DNA of 64,000 nt, taken from NCBI GenBank assembly GCA_965207065.1, contig OZ242260.1, positions 3,194,514 through 3,258,513 on the forward strand, given 5' to 3'. Of this stretch, positions 7,468 through 29,610 are shown piece by piece. A program made the translations under genes and the position numbers. This stretch comes from a bacterium. GTDB taxonomy: Bacteria; UBA8248. The notes beneath the pieces are model-generated. The model was not told where the DNA came from and searched no databases. It saw only the letters and a program-made list of their open reading frames with translations. Position 1 is the stretch's first letter. Each line of letters starts with the position of its first letter.

Positions 7468-7710
7468 TGTAGCGGACAGGCCTCTGCGCCTGCCCGAGGC
7501 CTCCGTGCCTGTCCCTACATGAGACGGTGCGGTTTTGTTCGTCATTCCGGTGTCGGGAGCGCCCCTTCGGCAGGCTCAGGAATGCAGTTCCTCCTTTCTC
7601 AGTCGGAACTGACCCTCGATGCGCGGCTTCGCCGCCACCGGTTGCGACCGGCATCCGGCCGCGGCGGAACCTTTACGGAATCTTTACCCCCCTCCGGCGC
7701 AATCGCTGGT
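7468..7710. repeat. REP/MITE-like element (long form)
   Basis: GTAGCGGACAGGCCTCTGCGCCTGCCCGAGGCCTCCGTGCCTGTCCCTAC, then gcggttttgttcgtcattccggtg..., ending with ccggcgcaatcgct. Confidence 0.75.
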
Positions 7711-7790
7711 AGCATCCCCGCACTGTCGAAATCTTCCACGGGGTGCGGACTTCACCGGGCGGGCGGCGGCGTTCCGTCGAGAGAGGGGTG

Positions 7791-8174
7791 ATGGAGCGAT
7801 ACTCGGATGAAAAGGTCCGCCGAGTGGTGGCCGGCATCATACCGACCCTGGATTCGAAACACACGACCGAAGCCTTCTTCCAGGCGGCGGCGATGATGGT
7901 GTTGAAACGGCTCGAGAAGAAGATCGGCATCGTCGTCCTGGACACGTCCACGCTTTCGATGACGCGGCAGTACGGCGCGCCGGACATCATCCTCTGCCGG
8001 GCCGGGGGGGAGTATGTCGCCATCGACCTCAAGGCGGGGAAGAACGACCTTTCCACGCGTCAGCAGCGGTTCCGGGAGCGTGTGATCAGAGCCGGCGGCA
8101 AGTACTTCGTGTGCCGGACGCTCCGCAACGTGATTGACGCCGCGGTGAGCGGCGACCTGGACCCGGACGAGTAA
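7791..8174 (+). CDS. VRR-NUC domain protein (PD-(D/E)XK nuclease)
   Basis: 127 aa. ...DIILCRAGGEYVAIDLKAGKNDLSTRQQRFRERVIRAGGKYFVCRTLRNVIDAV matches the VRR-NUC core (D..E.K..LS..Q). ATG preceded by GAGAGGGG. Confidence 0.6.
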   Translation: MERYSDEKVRRVVAGIIPTLDSKHTTEAFFQAAAMMVLKRLEKKIGIVVLDTSTLSMTRQYGAPDIILCRAGGEYVAIDLKAGKNDLSTRQQRFRERVIRAGGKYFVCRTLRNVIDAAVSGDLDPDE

Positions 8175-8877
8175 TTCCCTTCTCGGGGGACGCCTCTTTC
8201 CCGGCGGAAACGATTGACGGTCGCGTTACACTTTCGTCCCGGCCGTGATGGCAGCACCCGAGCAGCGTTAGTTTGGTGTCTGTCCAACCGTAACTGGTTT
8301 TTCCTGATGCTCTCTGCACCATCAATGTCGACACGATTTTCAGGCTCCTTCGGTGCGTGGACGGCATTCCGACATCGATTTTCATCACGTAGAGGGCAAC
8401 TACAATCCGGATCCGGTCGGCGCTATGACCTATTCCGTCACGGGATGAGCGAACGTGTACGACGATTGTAACAGTTCGGCGGAGGGGTGATAACTTAGTC
8501 GATGCCGGAGACATTCGTAGGAATTGCGCGGTGTAGCCAGCTTCAGCAGGTGCTTTCCTTTTCTTTATCACCCCACGACCGAACGAATACACTTAACCCG
8601 ACCGGAAACTGCCTGCATGCGCTGGAGTTGAAATGAATCCGCTTTCGGTATGATTACAGACTGCGAAAGACGGGTTTTCGGTGAGATTGAAAAATTAAAT
8701 ATAATTATATATATCAATAAGATACGAGTATTTCATGATTATTGAGAATGCTCTGGCGTCTCTAAAAGGAGCGCTTGTATCGAAGGGCGCTCTCGATGTG
8801 CCCCGTTTGACCCACCCTCCTCGGTCGGGTCAAACCCTCGATACGGCCCTTTACGCCTGCCCGGGATGAGGGGGAGT

Positions 8878-9090
8878 CCGTAGGGACAGGTCGCGACCTG
8901 TGCTCATCCTCTCATCGACCGGGAAAAACCACCGTCATTCCGGCGCATGCCGGAATCCAGAGTGGATGTGTGCGAATATGCGCGGTGCTTCATGCCCTCT
9001 CATCGGCAGGAATACGGCAGAAAAGAAATACAATGGCAAAACCACTGGATTCCGGCATGCGCCGGAATGACGGGCGAAACACGCGCGCTG
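8878..9090. repeat. REP/MITE-like element with two cattccggcgcatgccggaat hairpins
   Basis: GTAGGGACAGGTCGCGACCTGTGC, then accgtcattccggcgcatgccggaatcc, ~90-bp spacer, ggattccggcatgcgccggaatgac. Confidence 0.75.
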
Positions 9091-9381
9091 CAGGAACAAC
9101 CCCTCCTCGGGGTAGTCCTGCCCCTCGTGGTTGTCCATTTTCAGTGTGGGCGCGGCCTGGGCAGGCAAAGGGGCCCGCCCCTGCGTCTTCATCCCGCTCA
9201 TTGTTCCAGGCCCGGCCCTGAGCTAACCTGCCAGGGAACCATCCGCTTGAGGCCGGTCGAACCAAAGGCGGAATGCCGAAAGCATGTCAGAGTGCGCCCC
9301 GAAAGGAACGCATCTTAGGCTTGGCGCAATCTGCGTGCGGGGTAGCGGATCTCAAACCGAAAACAATCGGAGGAACGTACG

Positions 9382-10320
9382 ATGCTGAGCAGAAGGAACC
9401 GGTTTTCACTTCTTGCAGCAGTCGTGTCGTTCCTGATGATGTTGTCCGGTTGTGGAGGTGGCGGTCAGGGCGCCGGGTCCGTGATTCTGGAGACGAATGA
9501 AATTGAAGGCGTTTTGAGCGACTTGAGGAGCGATGCGAAATCTCCCGCGCTTGCTCGATTTGGTGCTGATCCTCCTCCTCCGGACGTCCCGACGTGTCAG
9601 GCGCTTCTATTGGGATGTGAAGGAGGCCTCGGGCCGGCTCACTACAGGGCGGTTGGCAAGTTTGACTTTTCCGGCTTTCGTTTCACGGAACGTCGCCGCG
9701 GCGTGTCTTTGGCGGAAAGGAGGCGAGTTTCAGGAGGAGGAGGCGATACGACCAGCTACCGTGCCTTGGCCGGCTGGATCGACCATAGTTTTTTCCTTGT
9801 CGAGACTCCCGGAATCGGGGTGTCTGAAGATAACCGGGTTTTCGCAAATTACTATGGCGCCTATTCGATAGGAAACGTAATAGATTCGAATCCGGATGTT
9901 TTGGCTGGCGCCGCCGCGACGTGGTCTGGGATTATGGTTGGTATCCGTATTGCCGAGCCGGACAGTTTCGTCAAAGGCGACGCCACAATCACGGTTTCCA
10001 ATCCGCGAAGAAATGCTGATCTGCTGGTCGATGTCGAGTTCAGCAATATGAAAGACGAACAAACGGGTGCGAATTTCGATGATGTTTCCTGGGAAGGTCT
10101 GGCGCTCAAAGACGGTTCGTTCGGAGTCGTTCCTGTCAGCGGCGACGAGGCGGATGCCAGCCGGCATCCTGCGAGGAGAGGGGTATCCGGCCGGTTCTAT
10201 GGTCAAAACCATGAGGAAGTGGGCGGCTTGTTCGGTTTCACGACGGCTGTTGCTGAAAATGACGGGGGCATTGGAGATATTCATGATGTTTCCGGCGCAT
10301 TTGGAGCCAGGCGCGACTAG
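9382..10320 (+). CDS. TbpB/fHbp-fold surface lipoprotein (putative Slam-dependent SLP)
   Basis: GGAGGA RBS. Lipobox LSGC followed by a Gly-rich tether. C-terminus RRGVSGRFYGQNHEEVGGLFGF...SGAFGARRD is the canonical TbpB_B_D barrel ending. Confidence 0.7.
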   Translation: MLSRRNRFSLLAAVVSFLMMLSGCGGGGQGAGSVILETNEIEGVLSDLRSDAKSPALARFGADPPPPDVPTCQALLLGCEGGLGPAHYRAVGKFDFSGFRFTERRRGVSLAERRRVSGGGGDTTSYRALAGWIDHSFFLVETPGIGVSEDNRVFANYYGAYSIGNVIDSNPDVLAGAAATWSGIMVGIRIAEPDSFVKGDATITVSNPRRNADLLVDVEFSNMKDEQTGANFDDVSWEGLALKDGSFGVVPVSGDEADASRHPARRGVSGRFYGQNHEEVGGLFGFTTAVAENDGGIGDIHDVSGAFGARRD

Positions 10321-10504
10321 TCCGGCCGCTGCGTGAAGGTGAAGGTATCTTGTTTTCCATTGCCGGAAATCATTCGGATTCATGGCGGCGAAGCCGCGTT
10401 TGCCGTAGGGGCAACCCCTCCTCGGAGCTGCTCCACTATTCGCGAAAGTGGGCCGCCTGCGAGTGGTCCCCACCAGGATCGCCGTTCTCTTGTTCATCGA
10501 ACGA

Positions 10505-10550
10505 GATAGACCACCGTCATTCCGGCGCATACCGGAATGACGAACAAAAC
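10505..10550. repeat. Solo cattccggcgcataccggaatg palindromic unit
   Basis: accaccgtcattccggcgcataccggaatgacgaac; same unit as in the composite elements. Confidence 0.7.
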
Positions 10551-10612
10551 AGGACTCCCTCGTAGTGGGCCGTTCTTGCTTGTGAGTGATCCTCATTCAC
10601 GAACTCGCGGGC

Positions 10613-10640
10613 TTGACATCGGCATGATATTCCCTATATT
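10613..10640 (+). promoter_or_regulatory. Sigma70-like promoter for the RES-Xre TA operon
   Basis: TTGACA (10613-10618), 16-nt spacer, TATATT (10635-10640). About 45 nt upstream of the antitoxin ATG. Confidence 0.5.
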
Positions 10641-10684
10641 TATTAATCTAATGGATATCACGCCTCGTCCTGGAGGATGTCCGC

Positions 10685-11359
10685 ATGACTGAAGCGTTGT
10701 CCCTGATCGATCTGACGCCCGGCGAAATCGACCGGCTGCCCGCCAGTCTCCGGAGGAGGATCGGTGGTTCCTCGCGCTCGGAGGATTCCCCGCCCGGCGC
10801 CTGGCTCCTCGTGGGCGAACGCACAGAGGGGCGGGCGGAACTGCTAGAACGGGCGCTCGAAATGCTGCCAACACTTGCGGCTGAACGAGGATATCGGTTA
10901 TCCGAGGCGAATATCGAGAAAATACTCGACGTCATTCTCTCGGACGCGCCCCGCCCCCGGATCGAGAATGAACTCGAAATCGACAATGCCAGGCTGCGCT
11001 CCCGGTATATTCAGGAAACGCCCCTTCTGACCGGGGCCGAGGTTCGCGCCGCTTCGGGCTTGAAGCCGCGCAACAAGAGCGAGCCCGCTTCCCGCTGGAA
11101 AAGGGAGGGCAAGCTGTTCGCAGTGCGCCGCTCGGGGATTGACCACTATCCGGCCTTTCAGTTCGCAGACGGCTCGCCGCGGCCGGCCATCAAGGCGATT
11201 CTCGCCGCTTTGCCGAAGGACATGACCGGTTGGCAAATCGCCATGTGGTTCGCATCCGGTAACGGCTGGCTGGACGGCGCAGAACCGCAGGAACGTCTCT
11301 CCGATCCGGACGCCGTCGTCGAAGCGGCCTGCAGTCTGGCTGATCCGGCGGTCGGGTAG
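10685..11359 (+). CDS. Xre/ParS/MbcA-family antitoxin (DUF2384 toxin-binding domain) of a RES-Xre TA pair
   Basis: C-terminal ...TGWQIAMWFASGNGWLDGAEPQERL matches the DUF2384 W..N..LGG.P motif. Sits immediately upstream of the RES gene (14-bp gap). GGAGGA RBS. Confidence 0.65.
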   Translation: MTEALSLIDLTPGEIDRLPASLRRRIGGSSRSEDSPPGAWLLVGERTEGRAELLERALEMLPTLAAERGYRLSEANIEKILDVILSDAPRPRIENELEIDNARLRSRYIQETPLLTGAEVRAASGLKPRNKSEPASRWKREGKLFAVRRSGIDHYPAFQFADGSPRPAIKAILAALPKDMTGWQIAMWFASGNGWLDGAEPQERLSDPDAVVEAACSLADPAVG

Positions 11360-11373
11360 GGCATTTCTCCTGG

Positions 11374-12009
11374 ATGTCGATCCGAATACCCCCGTCTGCG
11401 CTCGCAGAGCCTACCCTCGTTTCACTCGAAGCCGGTGCGCTCGTGCACCGGGTGCACGACAGGAATTACGGCGCGGTCGACTTTAACCCATGCAGGGGTT
11501 CTCCCACGCGCTTCGCTCCCGTCTACGATGCGGCGGGTGAGTGCGTTCCGTCTCTTTACGCGGCCGACACGCTGGAGGCGGCGATCCATGAAACGATCTT
11601 CCACGATGTTCCCGTAACGGCAAAACGAAAGACCGTTCCCAGGACGCTCGCCCAAAGCCGAGCGCACGCCCGGCTGGAAATCCTGCGGGATTTGCGCCTC
11701 GCCTCCCTGCGCGGCCCCGACCTCAAAAGGTGGCGCATCGGACGCAGTTCGTTGATCGGCGCCTCACCCAAGCTCTATACCGAGACCGCCCGGTGGGCGA
11801 GCGCCATTCACCACCAGTTTCCCGAAGTCCATGGCCTGCTCTGGACCTCGAACCAGTGCGATCCGGACAGTGCATACCTGTTCTTCGGAGACCGCGTCGC
11901 GCCGGAGGATTTCCGAATCCTGAACGCGCGCGATGGATTGTTCGACACGACGTTTCTCTCGGACGTTCGCCAGGCGGGCCGAAGATGCGGAATCACCATC
12001 ACGGTGTAG
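11374..12009 (+). CDS. RES-domain toxin (ParT/MbcT family)
   Basis: 211 aa. Conserved R (GSPTRFAP), E (LEAAIHE) and S (WTSNQCD) positions of RES domains. Paired with the Xre antitoxin. Confidence 0.7.
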   Translation: MSIRIPPSALAEPTLVSLEAGALVHRVHDRNYGAVDFNPCRGSPTRFAPVYDAAGECVPSLYAADTLEAAIHETIFHDVPVTAKRKTVPRTLAQSRAHARLEILRDLRLASLRGPDLKRWRIGRSSLIGASPKLYTETARWASAIHHQFPEVHGLLWTSNQCDPDSAYLFFGDRVAPEDFRILNARDGLFDTTFLSDVRQAGRRCGITITV

Positions 12010-12057
12010 GTCGACTTTTTCTTTTCTTGTCGTTTGGCCTGCCGAGGAGAGAGGGTT

Positions 12058-12330
12058 ATCGGTTCGCCGTAGCGGACAGGCCCCTGCGCCTGTCCGTGCT
12101 CCTGCGCCTGTCCGAGGCCTCCGCGCCTGTCCTGACGATGGGCAATCACGGGTATAGGCATATCCCATCTACGGACGGCCACGGGGGGCCGCCCCTACAA
12201 TAGATTCGATGGTCACATGCGTAGGGGCGGACCGACGCGTCCGCCTTGCGTCGTTCGCTCGTCAACGTATTTGTAGGGGCTGGATGTTCAGCGTAGGGAC
12301 AGGCCCCTGTGCCTGTCCGGGGTCGTGACC
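12058..12330. repeat. Cluster of REP hairpins (BIME-like) at the right border of the accessory region
   Basis: Three GGACAGGCCCCTG(C/T)GCCTGTCC units, one followed by CTGCGCCTGTCCGAGGCCTCCGCGCCTGTCC, plus GGCCGCCCCTAC motifs. Confidence 0.75.
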
Positions 12331-12486
12331 TGTCCAAGCCCGCTCCCCGTGCCGTCGCCGCAGACCCTGAAAGGAACAATAACTCTCAAAATTCCGCCTT
12401 CCCGCCCCGCCGGGCGTTGCTTCCCCGCGAAAATTCCCGTATCCCCTTGAACCAGAGCTTGATGAGGTTGGCGCAAAGCGGGGAGT

Positions 12487-15699: not shown

Positions 15700-16035
15700 T
15701 CCCTGAAAAGTCCTCCTCGCTCGGAACCGACCACCGCCGTCATTCCGGCTTTCGCCGGAATCCAGGGACTTTGCCTTTGTTTTTTATTTCTTTTGCACTC
15801 CCGCCAATGAATGGAGGATGAAAAATCGGAGCCCCGCCATTCTCCTCGGCTCTGGATTCCGGCATGCGCCGGAATGACGATCAAAAACCGCATTCACCCG
15901 TAGAGGCGGCCCACCGTGGCCGCCCCTATCGGATATATCCATCCCCGTGGTTGCGCTTCGCAGGGATAGGCGGCGGGGGCATCGAACTGGTCACGACCTC
16001 GGACAGGCGCGGAGGCCTGTCCCTACGGGGTCATC
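15700..16035. repeat. Composite REP/MITE-like element (cattccggcgcatgccggaatg hairpins plus GTAGGGACAGGC..GCCTGTCC REP hairpin)
   Basis: Reverse-complement copy of the element at 29255-29610. Shares modules with 4938-5040, 7468-7710, 8878-9090, 10505-10550 and 12058-12330. Confidence 0.8.
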
Positions 16036-29254: not shown

Positions 29255-29610
29255 AGATGGGTTGTAGGGACAGGCCCCCGTGCCTGTCCGAGGTTAGTTC
29301 GATGCCCCCGCGCTTTTCCCTGCGAAGCGCAACCACGGGGATGGATATATCCGATACGGGCGGTCACGGAGGGCAGGGCGGCCACAGGGGGCCGCCCCTA
29401 CGGGTGAATGCGGTTTTTGATCGTCATTCCGGTGTCGGTGCCGATTGATGAATGAGGGTTCGACGAAATCCAGGGACTTTGCTTTTGTAATTGACTTTCC
29501 GCTTTATCGTTTTTCTTGGGCGTCCTGAGATTCGGTAACTCCGTCTGCTCTGGATTCCGGCATTCGCCGGAATGACGGTGAAAACTCTCAAATGGGAGCA
29601 AGAACACCTT
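29255..29610. repeat. Composite REP/MITE-like element (inverted copy of 15700-16035)
   Basis: Shares >100 bp near-identical to the reverse complement of 15850-15945 plus REP hairpin GTAGGGACAGGCCCCCGTGCCTGTCC. Confidence 0.8.

Follow-up and report, generated by a model that had tools for sequence, protein, structure and literature searches.

The stretch of DNA analysed here, hereafter the window, comprises 64,000 nucleotides (nt) of contig OZ242260.1 (forward strand, positions 3,194,514 to 3,258,513) from an uncultured Nitrospinota-type sponge symbiont. At window positions 9382-10320 it encodes a lipoprotein of 312 amino acids (aa), the start of which lies 4.5 kb from that of a divergently transcribed Slam gene, coding for an outer-membrane protein of type XI secretion systems (T11SS). 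The lipoprotein is probably a vertically inherited chromosomal outer-membrane protein built like the cargo of a Slam, and the nearby Slam belongs to a separate element with a non-lipidated cargo of its own. The lipoprotein gene, its parts and its leader are as follows:

9382-10320, forward strand: lipoprotein gene, 312 aa plus stop codon (open reading frame with ATG start, 140 homologs, ratio of nonsynonymous to synonymous substitution rates (dN/dS) 0.30-0.42)
9382-9453, forward strand: signal peptide, residues 1-24, with lipobox LSGC and Cys24 predicted to be acylated (sequence; conservation of the Cys)
9454-9477, forward strand: Gly-rich tether GGGGQGAG, residues 25-32 (sequence; low predicted local distance difference test (pLDDT) values at residues 16-32 of the model)
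9478-9906, forward strand: N-terminal handle (effector) domain, residues 33-175, one helix and about seven strands, with conserved Cys72 and Cys79 (model; alignment)
9907-10317, forward strand: C-terminal eight-strand TbpB-type beta-barrel, residues 176-312 (domain model, Foldseek, PF01298)
9185-9381, forward strand: conserved region, a candidate promoter and leader, including the Shine-Dalgarno (SD) sequence GGAGGA at 9369-9374 (mean identity 80% over nine orthologous loci)

The SD sequence lies 7 nt 5' of the ATG. The N-terminus of the protein, MLSRRNRFSLLAAVVSFLMMLSGC, has the organization of a lipoprotein signal, with a positive n-region (MLSRRNR), a hydrophobic core (FSLLAAVVSFLMM) and the lipobox L-S-G-C that contains Cys24. 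In particular, the lipobox conforms to the pattern [LVI][ASTVI][GAS]C of bacterial lipoproteins, the class of Lgt/LspA substrates, and its Cys reaches at least 90% conservation across 66 aligned family members (alignment A1), as does the pair formed by Cys72 and Cys79. The 140 homologs found in a protein database search, together with a dN/dS of 0.30-0.42 against orthologs, indicate that 9382-10320 is a real gene; for the adjacent TsaD and Dus genes the same genome pairs give 0.12-0.18. One database protein (P0199) is 100% identical to the window lipoprotein. An initial annotation, made from the sequence, had described a 312-aa frame with a classical lipobox and a Gly-rich tether, and the frame, the signal and the conserved Cys bear this out.

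The C-terminal part of the protein is related to TbpB. Indeed, PF01298 (TbpB_B_D) matches residues 262-311 (profile positions 87-126 of 126) at E=4.3e-5, 59 of the 66 family members match the same profile at E<=0.01, and many homologs have a precomputed PF01298 match. When a profile of the family is compared with the PDB, TbpB chains are retrieved at E=9.6e-8 via the last two strands, in agreement with the earlier remark that the C-terminus comes close to the barrel ending of TbpB and fHbp. PF08794 (FHBP_C) is matched, weakly, in just one of the 66 members. The barrel motifs that are at least 90% conserved among them are ATWSGxMxG, GDAxITV, VDVxFxN, WxGLxLxxGxFG, GxFYGxNHEEVGGxF and GAFGAxR.

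The full AlphaFold2 model, computed from the family alignment (pLDDT 79.5, predicted template modelling score (pTM) 0.80), places a helix and about seven strands in residues 33-175 and eight strands in residues 178-311, and the barrel modelled alone (residues 170-312; pLDDT 83.7, pTM 0.79) again has eight strands. In a Foldseek comparison of the full model with the PDB, only members of the TbpB superfamily or Slam/type XI cargos are matched at a probability of about 1, namely HphA, the TbpB C-lobe, the LbpB N-lobe, hemophilin, fHbp, the NHBA C-domain and PmSLP, with HphA (8gmm, E=2.5e-5) as the top full-length match. For the barrel alone the best match is the C-terminal barrel of NHBA (probability 1.0, TMt 0.60), followed by TbpB, PmSLP (0.99) and HphA, with probabilities of 0.96-1.0 across the four. 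As modelled, the C-terminal domain is a TbpB-type eight-strand barrel by the structural definition of that fold, and the TbpB/fHbp fold proposed from the sequence thus reappears in the predicted structure.

The handle domain belongs to no Pfam family, and among 1.84 billion proteins it matches only 23 representative clusters at E<=1e-3; judged from these searches, it is lineage-specific. In many orthologs of 386-391 aa, an extra insert of about 75 aa with two Cys residues stands between tether and handle, with the pattern ...GNVEVSCPAGGPACVV.V..DG.VEY... at A1 columns ~200-295 (e.g. P0018, P0029, P0033); the 312-aa form of the window lacks it.

Slam-dependent lipoproteins have been defined as products of lipobox genes beside a Slam, with an eight-strand barrel common to all of them (PMC5449769; PMC12282271). 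Following the cargo definition of the same two papers, the window protein has, as predicted from sequence and model, the full type XI/Slam layout, in which a lipoprotein signal precedes a variable effector at the N-terminus and an eight-strand targeting barrel at the C-terminus. Its closest architectural counterparts are fHbp and NHBA of Neisseria and PmSLP of Pasteurella, which have the same lipobox, flexible linker, single N-terminal handle and single C-terminal eight-strand barrel, and which are likewise single-lobed and without an adjoining TonB-dependent receptor. They differ in that they come from proteobacterial pathogens, in that their sequence identity to the window lipoprotein is just 10-17%, and in that the handle of the window protein has no detectable relative beyond a small clade. 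By architecture and probable mechanism, the model thus points to a probable single-lobe surface lipoprotein of the fHbp/NHBA/PmSLP type. The protein itself is of the expected kind and has the structure that defines it, though it scores below the cutoffs of the sequence profiles, narrowly for PF01298 and widely for NCBIfam NF041636; what is mildly new is the setting.

The presence of HphA hemophores and of TbpB and LbpB among the best Foldseek matches could also suggest the lipoprotein component of a two-part nutrient receptor resembling TbpB/TbpA, or a hemophore with a lipid anchor. TbpB and LbpB share with the window protein the handle-plus-barrel architecture of a lobe and the last two strands, with the motif G-x-FYG-P-x-x-E-E-x-GG-x-F ... 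FGA-K/R-R. However, they have two lobes and a TbpA-type receptor, whereas the window protein is modelled with a single lobe and no TonB-dependent receptor gene is found in the 64-kb window, nor as a recurrent neighbour in 80 related loci. Hemophilin and HphA are two-domain cargos with a C-terminal targeting barrel as well, but they are unlipidated secreted haem binders encoded beside a T11SS and a TonB receptor, while the window protein has a conserved lipobox and no such neighbours. In addition, its orthologs have no adjoining T11SS, its sequence does not match PF22829 (HphA domain), and its handle has no detectable sequence relation to the handles of hemophilin or TbpB. Both assignments were therefore rejected, and we regard a receptor half or hemophore as highly improbable.

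The position of the lipoprotein gene in the chromosome was defined by comparison with related loci (numbered with L), and the following features bear on it:

8765-10411: conserved 1.65-kb piece of chromosome with the lipoprotein gene, flanked on either side by an indel (nucleotide identity of 96.5% with L090 and L091)
8700-8765: right junction of the inserted element with the chromosome, with an AT-rich stretch ending at 8764 (blastn breakpoint against L090 and L091)
10685-12009, forward strand: Xre/ParS-like antitoxin (10685-11359) and RES toxin (11374-12009; PF08808 RES, 52 bits)

L090 is a 4.23-Mb contig of a relative about 97% identical, and its lipoprotein is 95% identical to that of the window. 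There the gene order is transketolase, S41 peptidase, an 877-nt gap, lipoprotein, TsaD, Dus and SDR, and the site is without Slam, Tra genes or RES pair. The blastn breakpoint against L090 and L091 falls at 8764/8765, 617 nt 5' of the ATG, with no match to the left of 8765. The same two loci lack window positions 10412-12398, which marks a second, independent indel 3' of the lipoprotein gene. The antitoxin and RES pair is present in L001 and L002 and absent in L090 and L091. Nine related loci begin to match the window at 9180-9192, and the match extends rightward over antitoxin, RES, TsaD, Dus and SDR.

The S41 peptidase gene lies 0.4-1.1 kb 5' of the lipoprotein gene in L002, L006, L010 and L012 and is its ancestral upstream neighbour. 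Other insertions have moved it away in L001 and L013, and the window contains no copy of it, so the spacer between the S41 peptidase and the lipoprotein gene is a recurrent insertion site. No Slam is found at the same site in L090, L001 or L002, and no tRNA genes occur at the insertion site in the window or in seven relatives. In L001 this site is occupied by a different insert, which encodes a lipoprotein of 459 aa (7854-9233) whose C-terminus matches TbpB_B_D weakly (E=0.003), along with Sel1 and TPR proteins and two integrases.

To the left of the breakpoint, window positions 1-8764 form the right end of an integrated F-type conjugative element, the left end of which runs off the window. 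Its genes are:

3391-4860, reverse strand: Slam, the outer-membrane protein of type XI secretion, 489 aa, on the inserted element (PF04575 49 bits, cutoff 22; TPR repeats)
5066-6787, reverse strand: cognate cargo of the Slam, 573 aa, with a Sec signal, no lipobox and an alternative upstream start at 6865; hereafter the "599-aa" protein
111-2045, reverse strand: conjugative genes TraK (111-758), TraE (854-1414) and TraL (1422-1715) and a pilin-like frame (1725-2045) (Pfam TraK_N 57, TraE 124, TraL 93 bits)
2021-3380, reverse strand: two HTH_17 regulators (AlpA/excisionase-type) between the Tra genes and the Slam (PF12728, 37 and 43 bits)

The compositional outlier is this island and not the lipoprotein gene. 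Indeed, the element has a GC content of 0.65-0.74 and a GC content at third codon positions (GC3) of 0.79-0.92 (Tra genes, GC 0.69-0.73; Slam, GC 0.74 and GC3 0.92), compared with 0.56 for both values in the lipoprotein gene and a window mean GC of 0.61. The remaining 48 kb of the window are ordinary chromosome, with DnaB, Alr, Tgt, SecD, H+-PPase and others. By these comparisons, the lipoprotein gene is to be read as an ordinary chromosomal gene beside an inserted conjugative element.

Within the element, the Slam and the 599-aa gene are an independent and self-contained mobile module of two genes. Window positions 3391-6688 align as one block, at about 75-81%, to L083 and L084, where the module is surrounded by genes for transposases, integrases, ArdC and SSB and by a group II intron, and the lipoprotein is missing. 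Moreover, the 599-aa protein is 68%, 62%, 42% and 38% identical to the product of the gene directly 5' of the Slam in L083, L084, L085 and L087, respectively. Behind a Sec-type signal without lipobox, it has a tandem pair of repeats in its N-terminal part, and it ends in a barrel; searches of Pfam and the PDB by sequence gave no match. Its barrel is homologous to that of the lipoprotein family (hhalign 97.6%, E=4e-12, about 25% identity). The lipoprotein and the 599-aa cargo share this kind of targeting barrel, whereas their N-terminal parts are unrelated.

These results bear on the initial annotation, which had placed one translocon and two cargos, one lipidated and one not, in a single island. 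The difference in lipidation is correct at the level of sequence. The single island is not, since L090 has the lipoprotein at the same site without Slam or conjugative element and the breakpoint at 8764/8765 separates the lipoprotein from the mobile two-gene module. Closeness to a Slam does not place a gene in the island of that Slam, and it was the empty site of a close relative that settled the question.

The Slam of the window, the only one found in it, has 42 homologs, no match in PLSDB plasmids and a 100% identical database protein (P0187). A second Slam (P0121), 94% identical to that of the window, is listed for the same 4.48-Mb contig, and the genome probably carries a second copy of the module. 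The repeats of 599-aa-type cargos are about 120 aa long (LTASFHG.P..H.G..L..FE.RFSE.F.GL.L.A.K.AL.VTGGR..DVKRTVRG.N..VTVRVRPSS), and the conserved Cys pair of this type is ADC.A.GAIC. Simple-sequence repeats occur on the 5' side of such genes: 16 perfect copies of the octamer CTGTGGGT at window positions 7034-7161, about 170-300 nt 5' of the cargo-Slam operon; (CCGAGAG)x36 at about 7348-7600 of L083, upstream of the cargo gene; and (GCCT)x19 at 7225-7300 of L085, a Nitrospirales locus, within the 5' coding end, translated as LPACLPAC.... These tracts look like slipped-strand phase-variation tracts. The inserted DNA also contains a 143-aa frame (7743-8174, forward strand) with a VRR-NUC match below threshold (22.1 against 23.8 bits).

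Whether the lipoprotein family is linked to Slams was examined in the 80 related loci, which come from species-representative genomes, a link being defined as a PF04575 gene within 10 kb. A family lipoprotein and a Slam are linked in 12 of them, and in ten of these 12 the Slam gene follows the lipoprotein gene immediately, in the same orientation and 0-78 nt away. By chance about one co-occurrence would be expected in 80 loci, because a 20-kb window covers well below 1% of a genome of 3-4 Mb. All linked Slams that were tested pass PF04575 (53-91 bits), the linked cargos are lipoproteins covered by the family profile over its full length (about 10-308, E 1e-49 to 1e-101), and two further pairs, L086 and L089, came from a search starting with Slams. 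The Slam is also the only recurrent neighbour that crosses phyla. The largest neighbour cluster, present in 50 loci, proved to be artefactual, made up of stop-free frames on the strand opposite the family gene itself.

The Slam-adjacent relatives (L020, L034, L040-42, L054, L060, L065, L086, L089) are full-length homologs that share the lipobox and the NHEEVGG motif with the window lipoprotein, and their hosts are sponge-symbiont Alpha- and Gammaproteobacteria and Acidobacteriota. The closest one, L020, is 52% identical and shares the ending SRHPA...GRFYGPNHEE...VSGAFGARRD; a 91-bit PF04575 gene follows its lipoprotein gene by 790 nt. The family is thus genuinely Slam-linked elsewhere, as the earlier reading of the lipoprotein as a Slam substrate would lead one to expect, and its dependence on Slams is plausible from gene order. 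A multiplied form occurs in L065 (7730-12905; Alphaproteobacteria OZ244055.1), where a 1209-aa lipoprotein with three tandem family modules is followed, after a gap of 74 nt, by a Slam.

Several results weigh against reading the window protein as a Slam cargo. The profile search suggested by the initial annotation was positive by its E value and, at 24.5 bits, short of the PF01298 gathering cutoff of 26 bits; NF041636 (slam_lipo) gives 18.3 bits (E=2e-3, C-terminal 46 residues) and misses its cutoff of 80 bits. While the relatives listed above lie directly upstream of their own Slam, the window gene is an orphan, as are its orthologs in Nitrospinota, Binatia and Nitrospirales: in none of 11 Nitrospinota-type, six Binatia and about 25 Nitrospirales loci does a Slam lie within 10 kb. 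Near-identical lipoproteins occur on four further contigs of Mb scale, none of which appears in any Slam match list; the recall of these searches was poor, as the Slams of L034, L040 and L054 were missed. Close relatives may keep the lipoprotein without any Slam, which would favour a periplasm-facing or Slam-independent role.

The protein would then be a periplasm-facing outer-membrane protein in this lineage, with a TbpB-type barrel by descent that works without a Slam. In line with this, orthologs 76-95% identical have been kept intact at this site in genomes where the surrounding 10 kb contain no Slam, the searches, at poor recall, place no Slam on the same Mb-scale contigs, and 68 of the 80 family loci are unlinked to a Slam. 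However, the genes of well-known Slam substrates, TbpB, LbpB and fHbp, are likewise unlinked to Slam1. Moreover, the Slam searches missed Slams already known from the loci, and the dN/dS of the lipoprotein is two to three times that of its housekeeping neighbours, as expected of an exposed protein. Published work treats the eight-strand barrel as one of the features that define T11SS cargo (PMC12282271, PMC5449769, bioRxiv 10.1101/2023.03.15.532718). A periplasmic role is on balance rather unlikely, and a chromosomal lipoprotein built as a Slam cargo is the reading we prefer.

A separate question is whether the Slam at 3391-4860 is the one that serves the lipoprotein, as had been proposed together with the common island. 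The two genes are 4.5 kb apart on one 4.48-Mb contig, the barrels of lipoprotein and 599-aa cargo are homologous, and Slam1 of Neisseria serves several surface lipoproteins. In addition, the sister and outgroup Slams (L089, L034, L086, L054, L040-42, L060; 42-54% identical) all pair with family lipoproteins carrying the NHEEV motif, so the Slam of the window may retain this ancestral capacity. Against this stand the empty site in L090/L091 and the breakpoint at 8765, which contradict the island, as well as the divergent orientation and differing composition of the genes and the recurrence of the Slam and 599-aa module without the lipoprotein. In a neighbour-joining tree, the Slam of the window groups with those of L083, L084, L087 and L085 in a monophyletic subclade, in which the neighbouring gene is without exception of the non-lipidated 599-aa type, while all other branches pair with family lipoproteins. 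The Slam of L020, the closest linked relative, is just about 22% identical to that of the window (A2 alignment).

In chimera experiments the specificity of type XI secretion followed the cargo barrel, and even cargos 39% identical were poorly secreted by non-cognate secretors (bioRxiv 10.1101/2023.03.15.532718), compared with which the two barrels of the window are just about 25% identical. In one Nitrospirales chromosome, an orphan lipoprotein of the family (at 2.31 Mb) coexists with a Slam of this subclade (at 0.95 Mb). It is doubtful that a single Slam serves both cargos of the window, and the sequences suggest that the lipoprotein is probably not a substrate of this particular Slam; the full proposal, with both cargos and translocon in one island, is unlikely. 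The lipoprotein may depend on the imported Slam acting in trans or on a further Slam encoded elsewhere in the 4.48-Mb genome, or it may have no Slam at all.

For a chromosomal lipoprotein built as a Slam cargo, the following route can be proposed. After Sec export, Cys24 would be acylated through the inferred pathway of Lgt, LspA and Lnt; as residue +2 is Gly, no retention at the inner membrane is expected, and the Lol system would deliver the protein to the inner leaflet of the outer membrane. A Slam-type translocon would then recognise the barrel and flip the lipoprotein to the cell surface, where the exposed handle would bind a ligand, with no TonB-dependent receptor as a partner. Independently of this route, the high-GC F-type conjugative element has inserted between the S41 peptidase and lipoprotein genes, bringing the Slam and its non-lipidated cargo.

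The family is found almost only in uncultured metagenome-assembled genomes (MAGs) of Nitrospinota, Binatia, Nitrospirales, Alpha- and Gammaproteobacteria, Acidobacteriota, Gemmatimonadota and others, and the relatives, almost all of them from MAG series of sponges, fall under eight or more labels at the level of phyla. Next to the APA, RHO, COS and CAR isolate series, the remaining series are presumably sponge-derived as well. The four named series are demosponge symbionts, and sponge symbionts reportedly encode few classical secretion systems (PMC8163846). Slam/type XI systems have been described as proteobacterial (PMC5449769, PMC12282271) and are known almost entirely from proteobacterial pathogens, in connection with nutrient capture, immune evasion and vaccine antigens. 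At the locus described here, the same cargo architecture occurs as a conserved chromosomal gene in an uncultured Nitrospinota-type sponge symbiont, with a translocon on a conjugative element. If displayed at the surface, such lipoproteins would be candidate host-interaction factors of symbionts.

PF04575 Slams with an adjacent cargo also occur under the non-proteobacterial labels of L054 (a Terriglobia chromosome), L071 and L079 (Acidobacteriota), L085 (Nitrospirales chromosome OZ241905.1) and the window itself (Nitrospinota-type). A bolder idea, which we consider improbable, is that type XI secretion extends beyond Proteobacteria and that, in the microbiomes of marine sponges, conjugative elements bring Slams to Nitrospinota, Nitrospirales and Acidobacteriota that already have orphan TbpB-fold lipoproteins; gaining the element would switch these residents from periplasm-facing to surface-displayed. 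If true, a mobile translocon would unlock a chromosomal host-interaction factor.

Upstream of the lipoprotein gene, the region 9185-9381 contains long runs that are invariant across the nine orthologous loci, among them GGAAC (9235-9239)-N16-GTCGAA, which we take to resemble the promoter consensus of extracytoplasmic function (ECF) sigma factors; a promoter function of the region is suggested by inference only. No sigma-70-like promoter was found upstream of the gene, and no Rfam family within 6800-10800. A small hairpin just 5' of the SD sequence has GC to AU compensation in three of nine sequences, the structural covariation being weak.

Two interspersed repeats occur in the window. The 24-mer CGTCATTCCGGCGCATGCCGGAAT, similar to repetitive extragenic palindromic (REP) elements, has five copies in the window against zero expected: 8933-8956 (forward), 9049-9072 (reverse), 10515-10538 (forward), 15856-15879 (reverse) and 29554-29577 (reverse). 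The first two form an inverted pair 5' of the lipoprotein gene, and the third lies about 195 nt past its stop codon. The second repeat, GTAGCGGACAGGCC.CTGCGCCTGTCC..., is located at 4930-5017, 7469-7550, 12062-12143, 12286-12335, 15986-16026 and 29259-29293 and is common to the island, the core chromosome and related Nitrospinota-type loci.

The sharp change in composition, the repeats near the junction and the Gammaproteobacteria label of the closest named Slam homolog could be taken as signs of an assembly chimera, in which a proteobacterial conjugative element was joined to a Nitrospinota chromosome. However, an interspersed repeat of the host lineage occurs inside the island (4930-5017, 7469-7550) as well as in the core chromosome and related loci, Slams at least 93% identical are deposited under Nitrospinae/Nitrospinota (MCY4384914.1), and the breakpoint at 8765 does not coincide with the REP-like copies at 8933-9072. 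A chimera is thus very unlikely. P0187 and P0199, identical to the Slam and the lipoprotein of the window, are both listed with a contig of 4,476,866 bp.

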